The position numbers and the translations under genes are program-made. The notes below the pieces were generated by a model. The model was not told where the DNA came from, ran no database searches, and was given only the letters and a program-made list of their open reading frames with translations. From a virus, in the IMG/VR virus record IMGVR_UViG_3300031707_000005, positions 20,624 to 84,623 of that record: a DNA stretch of 64,000 nucleotides. One strand, given 5' to 3'. Positions 1,832 to 47,399 of the stretch are shown here, piece by piece. Position 1 is the stretch's first letter. The number at the start of each line of letters is the position of its first letter.

Positions 1832-2407
1832 ATGGGTCGTAAATTAACTATACTGGACCGTACCCGCTATATGAGCGATAAAGTAGCAGATCTACTCCGA
1901 CATGTCAGCACCTCAAAGGTGGAAATAATGTTGTCGGAGCAGAATGTGGTTTCCGGAATCCCGGACTCCGGTTTTTGGCCAAGGGTTACTATCAGTATCC
2001 CGGGCAAATTCAGGACATTTCCACTTACCTACTATAAACAGCAAACTAAACAAACAAGTAGTATACTCAGTGAACTCGAAGTAGAAATTCTCATATTGGT
2101 TAGTGGGGGCTCAAAAACCGATGTAAACCATTATGGACGTAAAAGGGAACTAAGAGGTGCTGCTGCCAGAATACAGGGTGTCATTAATAGAGCCATTCTA
2201 AAGGCATCAACGAAAGACCCGATGGCCACTAGACATGCAGCTGCATCCCGTCGATATAGAAAGAATAAATTCTTGCAAAAGTTCAAAGACTTCTGCAAGA
2301 CGAACGGTTACGGAGTCGAATATGAAGACATCAGACCATCGGAACTTGGAAAAGTCTGGGATGACGTCCGACGAACGAAGCTAGCCGAGTCCGTGATGGA
2401 CAGCTAA
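1832..2407 (+). CDS. Hypothetical protein ending in the (V/I)MxS C-terminal motif
   Basis: 191-aa ORF filling the gap between head genes on the opposite strand; ends AESVMDS*. Confidence 0.7.
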   Translation: MGRKLTILDRTRYMSDKVADLLRHVSTSKVEIMLSEQNVVSGIPDSGFWPRVTISIPGKFRTFPLTYYKQQTKQTSSILSELEVEILILVSGGSKTDVNHYGRKRELRGAAARIQGVINRAILKASTKDPMATRHAAASRRYRKNKFLQKFKDFCKTNGYGVEYEDIRPSELGKVWDDVRRTKLAESVMDS

Positions 2408-17409: not shown

Positions 17410-18183
17410 TTATCCAGTAATAGTGAGGATTTGAGCATCCCCTCTATCCCTGAATTGCGGTAAAGATACTTCATGCAGTATATTGAAGTGCTTATCAGAT
17501 ATGGCGAAGTAAACAGTCCAATACTTACCGAATCTAGAGTTATTGATCGCATCATCAACAGCTCTCTCAGCTGTGGCGATTTCTTCAGCACTTCGACCAT
17601 GTTTTCGAAGCATTTGAACTTGAACTTGCTTTTCGCGAGCTTCCTCGGCAATGAGGTCCTTAATTTTCTGAAGAGCTCGAAAGAATCTATGTCGAACACG
17701 ACCCTGTGTCAAATTCATTTGTTTAGCAATTTCTGATTGACATGTAGTTTCATACATACGCCAGAGAATCTCACGATCTTGATCACAAAACTTGGATCCG
17801 AGCTCAAGTTCGAACTGATCACGATCAAGCTCCGGAATAGTGCGCAAAAATTGAATACGCTTAATTCCTCTATGTAGACGATATGAAACGGCAGCTTGAG
17901 TGATCCCGAAAAGTTTCGCGATCTGCTCTTGTTTCATTTTATCTTTATGATATAAACGGATCAAATCCGCTTCTCGAGGCGGAATCCTATCTAGATATCT
18001 AGATATAGCATCAAAATTAAGTGAATTACCTTCTGTAGCAAGGTCTTCTTCAACCTCTGGGGCGAGGTTATGTTCAATCAGACTTTCAAGGTCATCTGAA
18101 TCATGATCATATCCGAGACGATCCTGATTGCTAAACCTCGAAGAAAGACTACTCGGATCCTGAATCAAAATATGGGTCGACAT
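17410..18183 (-). CDS. Sigma70 region-4-like transcription regulator with two tandem HTHs
   Basis: LDRIPPREADLIRL...QEQIAKLFGITQAAVSYRLHRGIKRI and DQDREILWRM...QSEIAKQMNLTQGRVRHRFFRALQKIK. Confidence 0.75.
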   Translation of the reverse strand: MSTHILIQDPSSLSSRFSNQDRLGYDHDSDDLESLIEHNLAPEVEEDLATEGNSLNFDAISRYLDRIPPREADLIRLYHKDKMKQEQIAKLFGITQAAVSYRLHRGIKRIQFLRTIPELDRDQFELELGSKFCDQDREILWRMYETTCQSEIAKQMNLTQGRVRHRFFRALQKIKDLIAEEAREKQVQVQMLRKHGRSAEEIATAERAVDDAINNSRFGKYWTVYFAISDKHFNILHEVSLPQFRDRGDAQILTITG

Positions 18184-41633: not shown

Positions 41634-43088
41634 TCACCATCCGTGATTGACAGAAGCTATCCTCGCAGCAATTCCGAGAATGGATGCCTGTCGAGAGCTA
41701 GCAGTTTCTTGCTTACGCTTCTCTCTAAGACTCTTCGTTGTCTTAGCTGAACCTTCAGGGTTCTCACTTGATGGGATAGTATCAACGTCAATCCCCTGTC
41801 CCTTGAGTTTTTTAACAAGAGACTCGTAGGTCTTCTTATCCTTATCAGAGATCGTCCCTTGTTCAGTTTCCCATTTAAGGCGAGAAATTTTTCGCTCATC
41901 AATACCGCGTTGATAGGACTCTTTCTCGGATTCTTTCTTCATTTCAAGGGCTTCAACATCACCCTCAGTTGTATCACTAAAGAAAGTGTCGTAAAGAACC
42001 TGTTGTTGTGCGGGAGATAGAACGTTCTCAACGAAATCTGTTATCTTAGTGAGAAGCTTTTTTCTCGTATCTCCAACAAATCCGGACCAACGCTTTTCAT
42101 TCTTCTCAACAATGGCTTTTCCAGCCTCGGATTCAGAAAGCTTTTCTTTAAGCTTCGAGGCTTGTTTCATATTCTCTTTAATATCAGAACCGAAGCCACC
42201 TTCGTCTTCATAAAAGATGAGATCAAAAAGAGCAACTTCTTCCGGAGAAAAAGTCTCACGAAGATTCGGAACTTCGTCTTCGAGCAAATCCATGAATTCT
42301 TTAATAGCAGCTTGATCATCAAGCGCACGGCCTAAAGAACTCTCCGGATTGGTCGGCATTCTGCCTTCACCACCAGAAGGATCCCCACCTTCTTCACCTC
42401 TAGTCCCGAACGCTTCATCAATACTCTTAGTCTTTTGACTTTTCCAACCAGCCTTCGGGATAGGCTTAATGGTCGAAATATCGGTACCATCATACTCGAG
42501 GGTTTCCTCGAGTTGTTTCATTCGCTTGTCGTCATCAGGGCCCCATTTTTTAATATGGGTCTTACCTTCGTCTGTATCAAGAAGACGAGATTTTTGTTTC
42601 CCATCACCAACAAGATTCTGATTCTGTTTTCTGAAAAGAAGTTCGCCGTACTCTTCAGCCGGGTCTTTCTTTGATCTAAAACGAGACATCGACTGAGACA
42701 TGGCAGTCGTTTTAACGTTATTTAATATATTATTGAGAGCCTGTTTCCATGTTTTGGCTCCCGGGGAGCCTTTTTTCGTAGGACCACGGAAGTCAAATTC
42801 CGGTCTGTCCTTCCGACCAACGATCTTAATCATGAAGTTTTGAACGGCGTCTAAAGCCTCTGCATAGTCTCCCTGCAGTTCCTTTTTGGCCTTACTGACC
42901 ATCATATTACCGATCTGAGTGCCGTTCAGGTCTATTTCCCCGGCTTGATCAGGGTACTGACGTTTCAGAATTTCAAGGATATGCCGTCCTAGAGATGTCT
43001 CTATGTCTGCAGCAAGACGCAGCATAGCATAAATCAAACGGACTGACGCAGATATATGGGTATTGGCGACTTTAGTGGTCATCGCCAT
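41634..43088 (-). CDS. Divergent sigma-like protein bearing head-protein motifs
   Basis: EALDAVQNFMIK and KQALNNILNNVKTTAMS are region-2-like; PNLRETFSPEEVALFDLIF is region-4.1-like; termini carry KVA, RLA and IAARIAS. Confidence 0.45.
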   Translation of the reverse strand: MAMTTKVANTHISASVRLIYAMLRLAADIETSLGRHILEILKRQYPDQAGEIDLNGTQIGNMMVSKAKKELQGDYAEALDAVQNFMIKIVGRKDRPEFDFRGPTKKGSPGAKTWKQALNNILNNVKTTAMSQSMSRFRSKKDPAEEYGELLFRKQNQNLVGDGKQKSRLLDTDEGKTHIKKWGPDDDKRMKQLEETLEYDGTDISTIKPIPKAGWKSQKTKSIDEAFGTRGEEGGDPSGGEGRMPTNPESSLGRALDDQAAIKEFMDLLEDEVPNLRETFSPEEVALFDLIFYEDEGGFGSDIKENMKQASKLKEKLSESEAGKAIVEKNEKRWSGFVGDTRKKLLTKITDFVENVLSPAQQQVLYDTFFSDTTEGDVEALEMKKESEKESYQRGIDERKISRLKWETEQGTISDKDKKTYESLVKKLKGQGIDVDTIPSSENPEGSAKTTKSLREKRKQETASSRQASILGIAARIASVNHGW

Positions 43089-43110: not shown

Positions 43111-44574
43111 TCAGTTGGAATATACGTCGGAAGTAGAACTAAGGATGGACGCACGGTTAATGGCGGATAGAACACGGTCTTCCGACATACCATAACGTAA
43201 AGAAACCTCAGAAACGCTGAATCCAGACATACGTAAAAAGTCAAAGAAATATGCACGAGCAATGATAGCAGAACCAAGACATACTCGCGGAGATAACATG
43301 TCGGAGACAGAACAACCATATCTCTCCGATATTTTAGATGCCATTGCCGTAATTATATCCGGACCGGCCCCACCGGCTCGAAGTTTCTTCAGTGCTGACT
43401 GACGAATCCGGTGAATTTTCTGAATTGGTTTACCGAGTTCGTTAGACATTTCACGAATTGAAATATCCTCAAGGTCAATCTTGGTGATAACCAACGATTC
43501 TTCTTCAGTCAATTCGCACGCTTTAACCATCCGTTCGAGGTCGTGTATATCTTCCGTTTCTTGAAACTTTTTAAAAGAAGAAACGTCACATAGTATGCGA
43601 GTTTTTCCTTCTTCAGTCGTATCATCAGTCTCCCAGGAGACTTGATCCTTATCGGAAAGCTCAGGAGACTTACCGTTATTGAAAACCATTGAATGAATGT
43701 CATTTGAACGAGACATTCGTTTGAAGTCGTTTACAACTTCATTATCGATTATTTTCTCGGCATATTTCAGAAGTCCAGCATCAATGCCATGTTTACGATC
43801 AGTTCGCATGATGTAAAGAGGAGTGTTCTTGACTTTATTCGTTTGATGCCAACCGCGTAAGAACGGTTTGAGTTGAGAGTCATTCCAACGAAGTTTTGAC
43901 GCTGCAACAGCAACGGACGGGTCCCCCCAGTTATTTGCAAGGGAAAGACGGCGTGATGCTAAGATAGAACGACCATGATCGCATTCAAGGCAACCACCAC
44001 CGATGCAAACATGCTCAGTAAACTCAGCGGGTTTAATACGACCCTGGCGATACATTGATTGAAGAAGAGTATACTGAGTTTCCGGATAACCGAGCAAACG
44101 TAAAAACTTACCGGAGTCTATCGTATGATTTTGAGGAGAATAGTAGTATCTCTCATGATCAAATTTCGCAAATTCAAGAATGTCAGATACACGCCACAAT
44201 GAATTTGCGCAAGAACGCAAACAACCACGGTCTTGATCATGGCGACGAACACAAGCCTTGTTCGTACATAAACCATTCGGAATGTCGACCGGAAAAATAC
44301 TTCCGATATATACAATCGATACTTCGCCAAGAATTCTCTCAGCTTGAGACCGATCAACAAGTTCATCAGATAGGTGTTTGAAAAACCACCGACCAATGAA
44401 ATCTTTTGAAAGGAGGCGGAGCCGCACATTCTGCGCGGTGTCTAACGCTCTCTCTTTATCCCGTTTAAAATGCCGAACAACTTTGGCATAAGTCCAGTTA
44501 TACCATTGTTGGGTAAACGACTTATTCGTAGGGATGACTATGCTGACGTACGCGCGCTTCATCAGTTTCTCCAT
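43111..44574 (-). CDS. Sigma70/ECF-like factor with large insertion and C-terminal DnaA domain IV-like HTH
   Basis: RALDTAQNVRLRLL, LKYAEKIIDNEVVNDFKR, LTEEESLVI...ISIREMSNELGKPIQKIHRIRQSALKKLR, then ISERYGCSVSDMLSPR...IIARAYFFDFLR..GFSVSEV...GMSEDRVLSAINR. Confidence 0.7.
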   Translation of the reverse strand: MEKLMKRAYVSIVIPTNKSFTQQWYNWTYAKVVRHFKRDKERALDTAQNVRLRLLSKDFIGRWFFKHLSDELVDRSQAERILGEVSIVYIGSIFPVDIPNGLCTNKACVRRHDQDRGCLRSCANSLWRVSDILEFAKFDHERYYYSPQNHTIDSGKFLRLLGYPETQYTLLQSMYRQGRIKPAEFTEHVCIGGGCLECDHGRSILASRRLSLANNWGDPSVAVAASKLRWNDSQLKPFLRGWHQTNKVKNTPLYIMRTDRKHGIDAGLLKYAEKIIDNEVVNDFKRMSRSNDIHSMVFNNGKSPELSDKDQVSWETDDTTEEGKTRILCDVSSFKKFQETEDIHDLERMVKACELTEEESLVITKIDLEDISIREMSNELGKPIQKIHRIRQSALKKLRAGGAGPDIITAMASKISERYGCSVSDMLSPRVCLGSAIIARAYFFDFLRMSGFSVSEVSLRYGMSEDRVLSAINRASILSSTSDVYSN

Positions 44575-44692
44575 GCGCCGGTTGTCCCAGCGACTAGCGG
44601 AGTTGAACTACTAGAATAACGGAAAATCCGTTACCCACCAGTCACACTACCACAAAAGATCAAAAAACACAAGGCTTTTGAGACTCAAGACA

Positions 44693-44956
44693 TTACTTCA
44701 CCGTTGGTTCGATTTCCAAATATTGAGTAAAGCCCGCAAGCCCGGGTCTAGACCCATATTTAAGAATACGTCTTTTAATTAAGTAAGGACCCTCAATTAT
44801 TCTCGAGCGCTTCGTTACCTTATCTCTAACAGTCATTTGTTCAAAGACAATCTCGGAACCGGGAGAAAGGATAGGTGTAAGCCCAACCCTAAATTCAAGG
44901 TGTGCCGGGAGATCCGTGAAAACGATAACTGTTCTTACCCCACACATCCCATTCAC
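44693..44956 (-). CDS. Hypothetical protein
   Basis: 87-aa ORF with plausible composition. Confidence 0.55.
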   Translation of the reverse strand: MNGMCGVRTVIVFTDLPAHLEFRVGLTPILSPGSEIVFEQMTVRDKVTKRSRIIEGPYLIKRRILKYGSRPGLAGFTQYLEIEPTVK

Positions 44957-45403
44957 CGGGTCCGTAAATGACCCCTTATTCCTATCAAGCTACTCTTCAT
45001 GACTCGCCTCCACATCTGACTCCGTCTCCGACTCTGTCTCTATCTCTGCTAACTCTGCTTCGCTACGTTGTGTAAAAACAAGAACGGGATCGAAAAAAGA
45101 AAAAGAAAAGATCAGATCTTTCAACTAAGAAGCTTACGGATTAACCGGGCGGACTTAGTTCTGAGAGTATACCCATGCACAAGAGCTTGTAAGGTATATC
45201 CCATACTTTTTCTTCGAATCTTCCTGGAACACGCCGCTGATCTTTACTTCTAGATTCGGGGACGAAACACTTCTGACAGCTCTTGAAGTGTTCCTCCTCG
45301 CCAGACCTCTATAACGATATATTGTCATGTATGGTCTGCAGTCCGCGTTCTTGTGAGCAAACTCTACAGTTAAAACTTAAAATGAGATCGATATAGTTCC
45401 AAG

Positions 45404-46150
45404 ATGATAAAGGCAACGAAAACGCCTAGGAAGACAAAGAAGGCTCCAGAGCTACCTAACGACGTCGAAATCAAAGAGGCGGTAGAGAAATGTATCAAGA
45501 GAATCGCGGGACCGGTTGAAGCATCATATTTACGCGTATGGCTTTTGGAAGTGGTCCGGAACAATGCTATCCCGATAAGCCTTCTTGAGTATCTTCCAGT
45601 CCCAGCAGCGGAAGTTGGAAAAACAAGATTTGATCAGTTATATGACGCTTCCATGGCTCTAGTATACCCCGGTTATTCGAAAGAAACGCTTGAAAGACTT
45701 CTAGGGCCTTCACCAAAAAAAGGCATCAAAATATGGAGGGTAATTCTTCCAGAAAAATTCAAGATAGCTCATGTCTTAATACGGGCAGAAAGTTTTCAAA
45801 AAGCGTTTGCTTTAGGGTGTGATTATACGTGTAGGATGTCTCTCCGCTTATACGGGAAGATACCGACTGATGTGACCATAAGAGTGATCTATATGACCGA
45901 AAGAGCTTTAAGAAGATATCTAGATTTAAAGTGGGCGAATAGAACATCACGTCGTAGAAAATTTAAACTCGAGGGTAGAGAAATAACGCAAAGGCAGATA
46001 AACGGGGTTCGTTTGTTTGCTCTCGGTTCTACGAAAAGTCCTTTGTATAGTGTGGCCAGATATTGTGAGAAAAAAGATTTGGACCGTGTAAGAAAATCAA
46101 AAGGACTTTCACGAGAGTCGTCTGTGGAGACCGAATCTAGGCAAGCGTAA
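45404..46150 (+). CDS. Basic hypothetical protein
   Basis: 248-aa ORF; TATAGT 6 nt before the ATG. Confidence 0.7.
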   Translation: MIKATKTPRKTKKAPELPNDVEIKEAVEKCIKRIAGPVEASYLRVWLLEVVRNNAIPISLLEYLPVPAAEVGKTRFDQLYDASMALVYPGYSKETLERLLGPSPKKGIKIWRVILPEKFKIAHVLIRAESFQKAFALGCDYTCRMSLRLYGKIPTDVTIRVIYMTERALRRYLDLKWANRTSRRRKFKLEGREITQRQINGVRLFALGSTKSPLYSVARYCEKKDLDRVRKSKGLSRESSVETESRQA

Positions 46151-46202: not shown

Positions 46203-47399
46203 ATGCAAGAGGGAAAACTGAACGTGTTGTTGGACGCATTCTGGGGGTCATCCGGTAAAGGAAAGACGTCCGCATGGCTTGCCGATAAATTCGGGGTAAC
46301 ACGAGTCTCAAGTTCAAATTTCCCGAATGCAGGTCATACAGCCGCATTTGAAGATGGCACGAAGTTCATAGCAAAAGCTATTCCGACGGCTGCAATCTTA
46401 AAGAAAGTTAAAGGAGTCGGGATGCAGTGCTGGTTATCTCCTGGTTCCGGATATGACTGGAATCAACTAATTAAAGAATGGGTTGAATCTGAAAAGCCGG
46501 AGATCAATATCCACTCACGTGCGTCAATCGTAACAGCAGAACACAAACAACGTGAAGCCAGTGGTTCAGAATCTACGAAGCATATTGCAAGTACGATGCA
46601 GGGTTCAGCCACAGCGATTGTTGACAAAGTCTTACGAAAAGCAGACTGTCAACTTGCAGAAACGATCGACCCGCGCATTATGATTGAGTCTCTATATGAG
46701 TCAAATCCAGTAACGCGTGATATTTTAGATCGTAGCGGAGCTTTACAAGAAATTGATCGAATTCGTGTTGTTGATGCGTTAGTTTTTCGTAAACTAACTC
46801 ATAGAGCACTTCGAAGCGGCCATACTTGGTTACATGAAGGCTCTCAAGGATACGCGCTTTCCATTGATCACGGATCTCATTATCCATTTTGTACGAGTCG
46901 AAACTGTTCAGTTCAAGCTGCCATGGATCATATGGCGGTTCCCCCGTCGATGGTAGGTGATGTTTATTTAAATCTACGAACTTTTCCAATTCGAGTAGGA
47001 AATGTCATTGAAGACGGAGTCCAAAAAGGTTTTTCCGGTGACTTTTATCCTGACTGTCGTGAAATGACATGGGAAGAAGTCGCGGCTGAGTCTGGTATGC
47101 CTCCTGAAGAAGCTAGAATGCTTGCTGAACGTGAAAGAACCACAGTTACGAAGAGAATTCGACGTGTCTGTAATTTTTCGTTTGAAGGACTTAAGGACGC
47201 TGTAGCAGTAAATGGCGCGACGAAACTAGTTATGAATTTTATTCAGTATATTAATTGGGAAGATGCCGGATGTGTTGAATTCGACAAACTTTCAAAAAAG
47301 AGTCGCGAGTTTATTTCGAAAGTTGAAGAAACTGTAAACGTTCCGGTCGTTTTAGTTGGAACCGGAGCACTTCATAATGAAATGATTAGTCGCTTGTGA
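46203..47399 (+). CDS. purZ: PurZ-like N6-succino-2-amino-dAMP synthetase (adenylosuccinate synthetase family)
   Basis: WGSSGKG (Ser where PurA has catalytic Asp in GDEGKG), NFPNAGHT, STMQGSA, EGSQG, YPFCTSR, FPIRVG, TTVTKRIRR, and NFIQY in place of PurA TKLD. Confidence 0.75.
   Translation: MQEGKLNVLLDAFWGSSGKGKTSAWLADKFGVTRVSSSNFPNAGHTAAFEDGTKFIAKAIPTAAILKKVKGVGMQCWLSPGSGYDWNQLIKEWVESEKPEINIHSRASIVTAEHKQREASGSESTKHIASTMQGSATAIVDKVLRKADCQLAETIDPRIMIESLYESNPVTRDILDRSGALQEIDRIRVVDALVFRKLTHRALRSGHTWLHEGSQGYALSIDHGSHYPFCTSRNCSVQAAMDHMAVPPSMVGDVYLNLRTFPIRVGNVIEDGVQKGFSGDFYPDCREMTWEEVAAESGMPPEEARMLAERERTTVTKRIRRVCNFSFEGLKDAVAVNGATKLVMNFIQYINWEDAGCVEFDKLSKKSREFISKVEETVNVPVVLVGTGALHNEMISRL

Follow-up and report, generated by a model that had tools for sequence, protein, structure and literature searches.

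The window analysed here is a stretch of 64,000 nucleotides (nt) comprising bases 20624-84623 of the 84.6-kb viral contig IMGVR_UViG_3300031707_000005 in IMG/VR. It carries on its minus strand a gene for a putative RNA polymerase sigma factor, in which a module of ~195 amino acids (aa) is predicted to be set into the sigma-2 loop that reads the -10 promoter element and a head related to domain IV of DnaA follows sigma-4. We favour, with moderate confidence, the interpretation that its product is a phage-encoded alternative sigma factor resembling those of the extracytoplasmic function (ECF) group, composed of sigma-2 and sigma-4 without sigma-3, which would redirect the host core enzyme in phages of ~400 kb that lack an RNA polymerase. 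Sigma factors are usually described in terms of two promoter elements read by two or three conserved domains. Neither a module in the -10 loop of a phage sigma factor nor a DnaA-derived head following its sigma-4 domain was found described in searchable papers, and no published description of the combination of sigma-2 insert and DnaA-type tail was found in the searchable literature. If the protein works as proposed here, it would represent an experimentally tractable case of extended promoter recognition and would show how 400-kb polymerase-less phages programme the host enzyme.

The gene is contained in an open reading frame (ORF) at 43111-44574(-), whose 487-aa translation (P0001) provides the residue numbers used throughout. 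The true start is most likely the ATG at 44562 (M5), as M5 is invariant in the family alignment (A1), a GGAG ribosome-binding site is located 6 nt before it and database copies of the protein begin at this residue, giving a coding sequence of 43111-44562(-) and a protein of 483 aa. The ORF is confirmed as real and conserved, with 201 homologues at E<=1e-3, mostly full length and on contigs of up to 436-439 kb, 48 clusters (50% identity) with E<1e-30, and orthologues in 18 IMG/VR loci. The contig itself is ~20% complete (CheckV), and near-identical sequence to the window is present in many sediment metagenomes. A tblastn search of the sigma protein against 50,697 deposited phage genomes returned no match.

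The fold of the protein was predicted with AlphaFold2 on the basis of 30 relatives (mean predicted local distance difference test score, pLDDT: 85) and compared with 48,161 PDB representatives using VIA-align, as well as by Foldseek, for which the top whole-chain matches were the sigma chains of ECF holoenzymes. The N-terminal part of sigma-2 (aa 9-67; 44374-44550(-); 63% mean pairwise identity) is modelled as the first three helices of an ECF-type sigma-2 fold, with helices at residues 17-67, while the last sigma-2 helix (aa 263-297; 43684-43788(-)) is represented by a long helix at residues 265-297 which carries a region 2.3/2.4-like II-x-N-xxx-N-x-FK sequence. The closest VIA-align matches are 1h3l_B (Z 8.2; 75/78 residues aligned), 2o7g (Z 8.0), 8b3z (Z 7.6) and 2mao (Z 7.4). 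ECF sigma-2 structures align over model residues ~9 to 285-304, yet only 69-93 residues are aligned across this span of ~280 residues, and sigma-2 is therefore split. An acidic linker modelled with low confidence (aa 298-335; 43570-43683(-)) leads to the sigma-4 domain (aa 336-402; 43369-43569(-)), a predicted -35-reading helix-turn-helix. Pfam Sigma70_r4 matches aa 354-400 (E: 9e-7; 28.7 bits; cut-off: 24.1) and also 23 of the 30 relatives, and residues 330-402 superpose on sigma-4 of many ECF and group-3 sigma factors (Z 8-9). The NCBIfam sigma70-ECF profile (TIGR02937) aligns aa 266-399 onto its positions 50-162 (E: 3.6e-8; 33.2 bits; cut-off: 42.9), a match which covers the last sigma-2 helix through sigma-4 only. 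Alignment by hhalign of the insert-less family with E. coli RpoE covered sigma-4 alone, and phmmer and profile searches against PDB sequences returned weak sigma-4 matches only, and no DnaA. A first-pass annotation of this DNA, made from its letters alone, had described a sigma factor with an interrupted region 2 and a clear region 4; the fold and profile evidence bears out the former and the Pfam match above cut-off the latter. The model contains neither sigma-3 nor sigma-1.1, and an arrangement of sigma-2, linker and sigma-4 corresponds to the ECF (group 4) layout. ECF factors otherwise have a compact sigma-2 of four helices in which the specificity loop is short; here, ~195 residues separate helices 3 and 4.

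The sigma-2 domain of Mycobacterium tuberculosis SigH consists of four helices, and the flipped -10 base is captured by a specificity loop of 8 residues located between the third and the fourth (PMC6411747). Combining this description with the sigma-2 alignment ranges and the order of secondary structure elements, rather than with a residue-level superposition, we infer that the insert (aa 68-262; 43789-44373(-)) grows out of the -10 specificity loop. When modelled alone from 18 orthologues, the insert folds confidently (pLDDT: 90; predicted template modelling score: 0.79). Foldseek returned no match for this model, a protein atlas search with the insert gave no usable match, and VIA-align produced weak matches of Z<=5.3, led by the C-terminus of TniQ (Z 5.3) and followed by one at Z 4.9, Xis (Z 3.8) and BldC (Z 3.6). 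The two halves of the insert (model residues 1-75 and 77-183) each weakly resemble winged helices of the excisionase/MerR/BldC/TniQ type, and comparison of the halves with one another by hhalign showed no significant likeness (E: 0.017). Within the insert, the residues of an H188-x-C190-x4-C195-x2-C198 motif (43981-44013(-)) are invariant in 30/30 sequences, and as such a zinc site is predicted here; in many relatives C190 and C195 are separated by an additional Cys/His finger. The Cys-rich insertion of roughly 200 aa noted at the outset stands, with this His and these three Cys as its only invariant motif residues. The CTNKAC..C..C cluster (aa 103-122), one of the two by which it had been recognised, does not share this conservation, being located in a variable loop (aa 96-124; 44203-44289(-); C-x4-C-x9-C-x3-C) that is present in a subset of few family members. 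Mean pairwise identity is 63-65% for sigma-2 and 57% for the insert core, compared to 35-36% for both sigma-4 and the tail. Judging by these values, the insert would be an integral part of the working protein, whereas the two C-terminal DNA-reading heads appear to diverge between phages.

The C-terminal tail (aa 403-487; 43114-43368(-)) is a predicted helix-turn-helix for which the best VIA-align match, over aa 403-486, is domain IV of DnaA (1j1v_A; Z 10.5; root-mean-square deviation, rmsd: 2.1; 79/94 residues), with further matches to 3pvp (Z 9.9), 8btg (Z 8.8) and 1l8q (Z 8.7). The DnaA domain IV-like tail had likewise been proposed in the first-pass annotation, which let the proposal depend on the C-terminal DnaA fold; Foldseek, too, matched the tail to DnaA domain IV (probability: 1.00). 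A profile link runs via intermediates. Three proteins match the full-length family profile in its C-terminal part only, P0166 (E: 2.5e-16), P0169 (E: 5e-12) and P0170 (E: 2e-10), and Pfam labels the matched stretches as Bac_DnaA_C (E down to 7e-31). Alignment of the tail with P0166 by hhalign (probability: 93%; E: 3e-7) places the invariant A439-R440 on the Ala-Arg of DnaA and SEDRV on RDHTT, and a weak alignment with Escherichia coli DnaA domain IV alone (probability: 15%) follows the same register. The Pfam Bac_DnaA_C model (PF08299; cut-off: 31.5 bits) does not match the record itself, and scores 17.7 and 14.7 bits, below cut-off, on the tails of two orthologues. In BFVD, uncultured phages are represented by many "DnaA C-terminal" proteins of 79-205 aa that can be superposed on the tail (rmsd: 1.2-2.6 Å). 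When the tail profile was used to look for longer proteins, the same sigma family alone was recovered. The invariant residues of the tail are G434, A439, R440 and R474; in the recognition helix, conservation is 97-100% at R467 and R474. The tail keeps the minor-groove arginine, R440 being the counterpart of E. coli DnaA R399, which we take to be the minor-groove contact in 1J1V, and the RDHTT(V) base-reading signature is replaced by the consensus xE(E/D)RV. On the model and profile evidence, the tail is a genuine but diverged homologue of DnaA domain IV, and it should bind DNA, though not DnaA boxes. The AAA+ domain III of DnaA (PF00308) is not part of the sigma protein, and none was found in the record or the complete relatives in the searches made.

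Complete genomes, 362-436 kb in size and with terminal repeats, are available for five of the relatives. A search for the RNA polymerase beta subunit (PF00562) found none in these five genomes, and each contains 3-6 sigma-4 matches over several ORFs, suggesting that these phages depend on the host polymerase and a set of sigma-like proteins. A candidate promoter class with the motif C-GTAAAT(T/C)-N13-CGTA was identified in four genomes (G000, G001, G003 and G005); its 24 sites precede start codons by 25-50 nt, and their information is concentrated in two blocks. A CGT -10 element and an A-rich -35 element give this motif a likeness to ECF promoters, and the sigma holoenzyme possibly reads ECF-like CGTAAATT-N13-CGTA promoters of this kind. 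Among the genes that follow the motif are ligase-like, HNH-like and ATPase genes. The window contains two copies, at 1839(+) and 51696(-). For the ORF at 1832-2407(+), an internal ATG ~38 nt past the first copy is the probable start codon. The presence of a phage-type GTAAAY-N14-GTA motif directly upstream of the sigma gene in four loci (L003, L005, L010 and L016) would fit autoregulation of the kind known from autoregulated ECF sigma factors. The word TAAGCCCTTT was not enriched, and no further promoter class emerged clearly from k-mer and dyad enrichment, words of the TATATGG type having no common context.

The region upstream of the sigma gene, 44575-45403, had been taken to be non-coding; it holds, however, a gene for an 87-aa protein (44693-44956(-)) which is conserved in 14 loci, is always located upstream of the sigma gene and has no family match, and the true divergent intergenic region is the 447 bp at 44957-45403. 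Between the 87-aa gene and the sigma gene is a predicted sigma-70-type extended -10 promoter (44644-44672(-)), with its -35 element TTGTGT at 44667-44672, TG at 44651-44652 and -10 element TAGTGT at 44644-44649. The version in the window reads TTG..17..TG-n-TAnnnT, and the pattern TTG / TG-n-T....T is kept in 13 of 14 loci; a generic promoter and terminator scan performed at chance level and missed the promoter of the sigma gene. The conservation of a host-type extended -10 promoter suggests that the sigma gene is expressed early rather than late. The transcript would furthermore contain a 5'-leader RNA hairpin (44569-44602(-)), seen across L002-L018, of which the outer CUCC:GGAG stem includes the Shine-Dalgarno sequence (GGAG; 44569-44572). 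Covariation in this hairpin is clear: 96.7% of cells are paired, as opposed to 80% in shuffles, with 0/500 shuffles reaching the observed value and slid controls reaching <=56%, and four pairs show double changes. As this conserved hairpin hides the ribosome-binding site, which is sequestered by the CUCC:GGAG stem in 4/5 folds, translation of the sigma mRNA is probably gated by it. No Rfam family matched 44400-45600. Metatranscriptome contigs of a 90-97% identical strain, all from one freshwater-sediment study, match the sigma gene in part. Those from two libraries (44647-45622) span the 87-aa gene as well as the entire divergent intergenic region and end at 44647 and 44653, beside the predicted -10 element. 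Similar depth is observed in DNA libraries of the same samples, the contigs may stem from DNA carry-over, and they give neither strand nor transcript ends, so that transcription is not shown by them.

We propose that the sigma gene would be made early from the host-type extended -10 promoter, with the leader hairpin gating its translation, and that the resulting holoenzyme would read ECF-like phage promoters, for which CGTAAAT(T/C)-N13-CGTA is the candidate. Placed in the sigma-2 loop into which ECF factors take the flipped -10 base, the insert would lie beside the -10 element and the non-template strand, where it may play a buttressing role, like regions 1.2 and the non-conserved region (NCR) of primary sigma factors, or add DNA contacts. 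The tail, following a short Gly-rich linker, most likely has its own specificity and helps to anchor the protein on DNA immediately upstream of the -35 element, as an accessory domain and not as a reader of DnaA boxes or an origin. The conserved promoter, the leader hairpin and the candidate target promoters represent concrete constructs on which this proposal can be tested.

Several observations weigh against it. The sigma-2 domain is invisible to Pfam, as the sigma region 2 model (PF04542) does not match the record and matches one of the 30 relatives at E 0.057, and its structural scores (Z 7-8) are middling. The fold assignment of the insert is weak. The tail, moreover, is lacking in some members of the family: the orthologues of L015 (352-1638) and L017 (5965-7368) end directly behind sigma-4, with the downstream gene in its usual place. 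L017 in addition lacks the GATC/polypurine element together with the divergent intergenic region that contains it. Several other clusters are apparently tail-less as well, matching only up to profile position ~385. The tail is therefore dispensable or accessory. A stand-alone tail gene was sought and not found in the two tail-less genomes, the records of which are 72% and 47% complete. The 24 aligned candidate promoters carry <=0.2 bit upstream of the -35 element, so that no third element is seen for the tail to read. These phages also encode other sigma-like proteins, one of which may be the reader of this promoter class.

It is nonetheless very unlikely, in our judgement, that the protein is no working sigma factor and acts as a free DNA-binding regulator, or as a decoy which represses or sequesters the host polymerase through sigma-4, the DnaA-IV head and perhaps the winged helices of the insert. 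The extreme divergence of sigma-2, the interruption of its specificity loop and the presence of up to four putative DNA-binding modules would be compatible with such a function; however, conservation within the protein is highest in the two halves of sigma-2, the order and spacing of sigma-2, linker and sigma-4 fit those of ECF sigma factors, and phages without an RNA polymerase need sigma factors.

The tail-less orthologues and the lack of an upstream promoter element bear more directly on the role of the tail, which could be a regulatory or protein-contact domain rather than a DNA binder, comparable to the C-terminal extensions of ECF41 and ECF42 sigma factors, and might auto-inhibit sigma-4 or dock a partner. 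In ECF operons the anti-sigma gene directly follows the sigma gene, and the corresponding slot is always occupied here by a gene for a 484-aa protein (41634-43088(-)), which would be a candidate for such a partner. Considering that the DNA-contact residues of DnaA domain IV are kept in the tail, R440 without exception, and that phages commonly encode small stand-alone DnaA_C proteins, we regard a purely regulatory tail as rather unlikely. The 484-aa protein has no Pfam, PHROG or PDB match, and the sole lead is an ESM-atlas match (score: 0.90) to a viral cluster in which Sigma70_r2 is found in half of the members. The protein could be either a partner of the sigma factor or itself a second sigma-like protein of diverged sequence.

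Comparison with known systems places the ECF-like sigma factor proposed here closest to the ECF (group 4) factors, such as E. coli sigmaE, M. tuberculosis SigH and SigL and Streptomyces coelicolor SigR (2mao, 5zx2, 6dv9 and 1h3l), with which it shares the build of sigma-2 and sigma-4 joined by a flexible linker without sigma-3. These provide the best structural matches to both sigma domains, and the candidate phage promoters have an ECF-like CGT -10 element. Unlike these factors, the phage protein is extended at the short loop by a 195-aa insert that carries a zinc-type motif, it has a further helix-turn-helix after sigma-4, and its sigma-2 scores below the family thresholds. With domain IV of DnaA (Bac_DnaA_C; 1j1v and 3pvp) the tail has in common the fold and the Ala-Arg of the minor-groove loop, with remote homology via intermediates, but it lacks the AAA+ domain, has xE(E/D)RV in place of RDHTT(V), remains below the Pfam cut-off and is fused to a sigma factor. 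The stand-alone phage DnaA C-terminal proteins in BFVD superpose on the tail but are single-domain proteins unfused to sigma. A DnaA-type head likewise follows sigma-4 in P0177, an unrelated metagenomic protein with Sigma70_r2, Sigma70_r3 and four Sigma70_r4 stretches as well as Bac_DnaA_C (E: 1e-23). P0177 is, however, a primary-type sigma factor with canonical domains and no sigma-2 insert, whereas the phage family is ECF-like with a far more diverged tail; hhalign of the tail against P0177 was uninformative, and the two types of sigma-DnaA_C fusion probably arose independently. C-terminal extensions after sigma-4 are also found in ECF41 and ECF42 sigma factors, where they are SnoaL-like or tetratricopeptide repeat (TPR) regulatory domains. 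These too are extra domains that modulate activity, but they are not helix-turn-helix DNA-binding domains. The late transcription system of phage T4 (gp55/gp33/gp45; PMC7824862) similarly employs a phage sigma-like factor in the absence of a phage polymerase, and the sigma gene described here adjoins clamp-loader genes; T4, however, couples transcription to replication via the sliding clamp and not via a DNA-binding domain, and no similarity to gp55 or gp33 was found in the phage sigma factor.

The window contains a replication and nucleotide metabolism module, including genes for a class II ribonucleotide reductase (RNR) with an intein, a RecD2-like helicase, an NAD-ligase half, ThyX, clamp-loader subunits and a PurA/PurZ-like protein. 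Gene order around the sigma gene is fixed in 17 huge-phage loci: the genes for ThyX, a 216-aa and an 85-aa protein, the PurZ-like protein and a 248-aa protein are located on one side of the divergent region, and on the other side the 87-aa gene is followed by the sigma gene, the 484-aa gene, genes for a 120-aa protein, a 64-aa Zn-ribbon protein and a 67-aa protein, and those for the clamp-loader subunits delta' and delta and RNR. The divergent intergenic region harbors a conserved polypurine/polypyrimidine tract with clustered GATC sites (45075-45125), including the palindrome AAAGATC-n-GATCTTT, as well as conserved blocks of non-coding sequence (..ATTGTCATGTATGGT.. and ACTCTACAG; 45318-45369(+)) that precede the divergent 248-aa gene. 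In most relatives GATC is 2-6 times denser in this region than across the locus, and among the origin marks sought there GATC clustering is the only one present.

These features bear on the suggestion, made in the first-pass annotation, that the tail binds an origin or origin-like landmark in the divergent region and thereby couples sigma activity or late transcription to replication. The location of the sigma gene within the replication and nucleotide module at every locus, the conserved polypurine tract, the elevated density of GATC and the true homology of the tail to DnaA domain IV would agree with such coupling. However, the motif with which DnaA reads its boxes is replaced in the tail and no AAA+ domain accompanies it, no iterons, repeat families or repeated boxes were found in the neighbouring region, the AT content of the divergent region (0.56) equals the genome average, and no cumulative GC-skew turning point is observed at the locus in three complete relatives (G001, G003 and G005), in which the skew is weak overall and says little about an origin. 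Furthermore, the sigma factor of L007 has the tail, but the divergent region at this locus measures 91 bp and is without the GATC/polypurine element, two orthologues have no tail at all, and the host-type promoter gives the gene an early rather than a replication-dependent look. Coupling of the sigma factor to a replication origin is thus not supported, and we consider it clearly unlikely.

The PurZ-like gene, encoding a homologue of adenylosuccinate synthetase (46203-47399(+)), has PurZ as its best NCBIfam match (E: 4e-55; 187 bits; cut-off: 300 bits) and is syntenic with the sigma gene in 15/15 informative loci. It could be a hint of a 2-aminoadenine genome. On account of this synteny, the remodelled -10 loop might be regarded as an adaptation to such a genome, with the insert letting the host polymerase melt and read modified promoters and the tail anchoring the polymerase on DNA that opens less readily, a scenario to which we assign a very small probability.

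Two further observations concern the gene content of these phages. A 257-aa protein encoded at 17410-18183(-) contains two Sigma70_r4 matches (E: 2e-17) and no region 2, and homologues of 274-323 aa are present in all five complete relatives. The number of tRNA genes shows a large spread among the related huge phages, with 45 in G001, 49 in G003 and 4 in G005.

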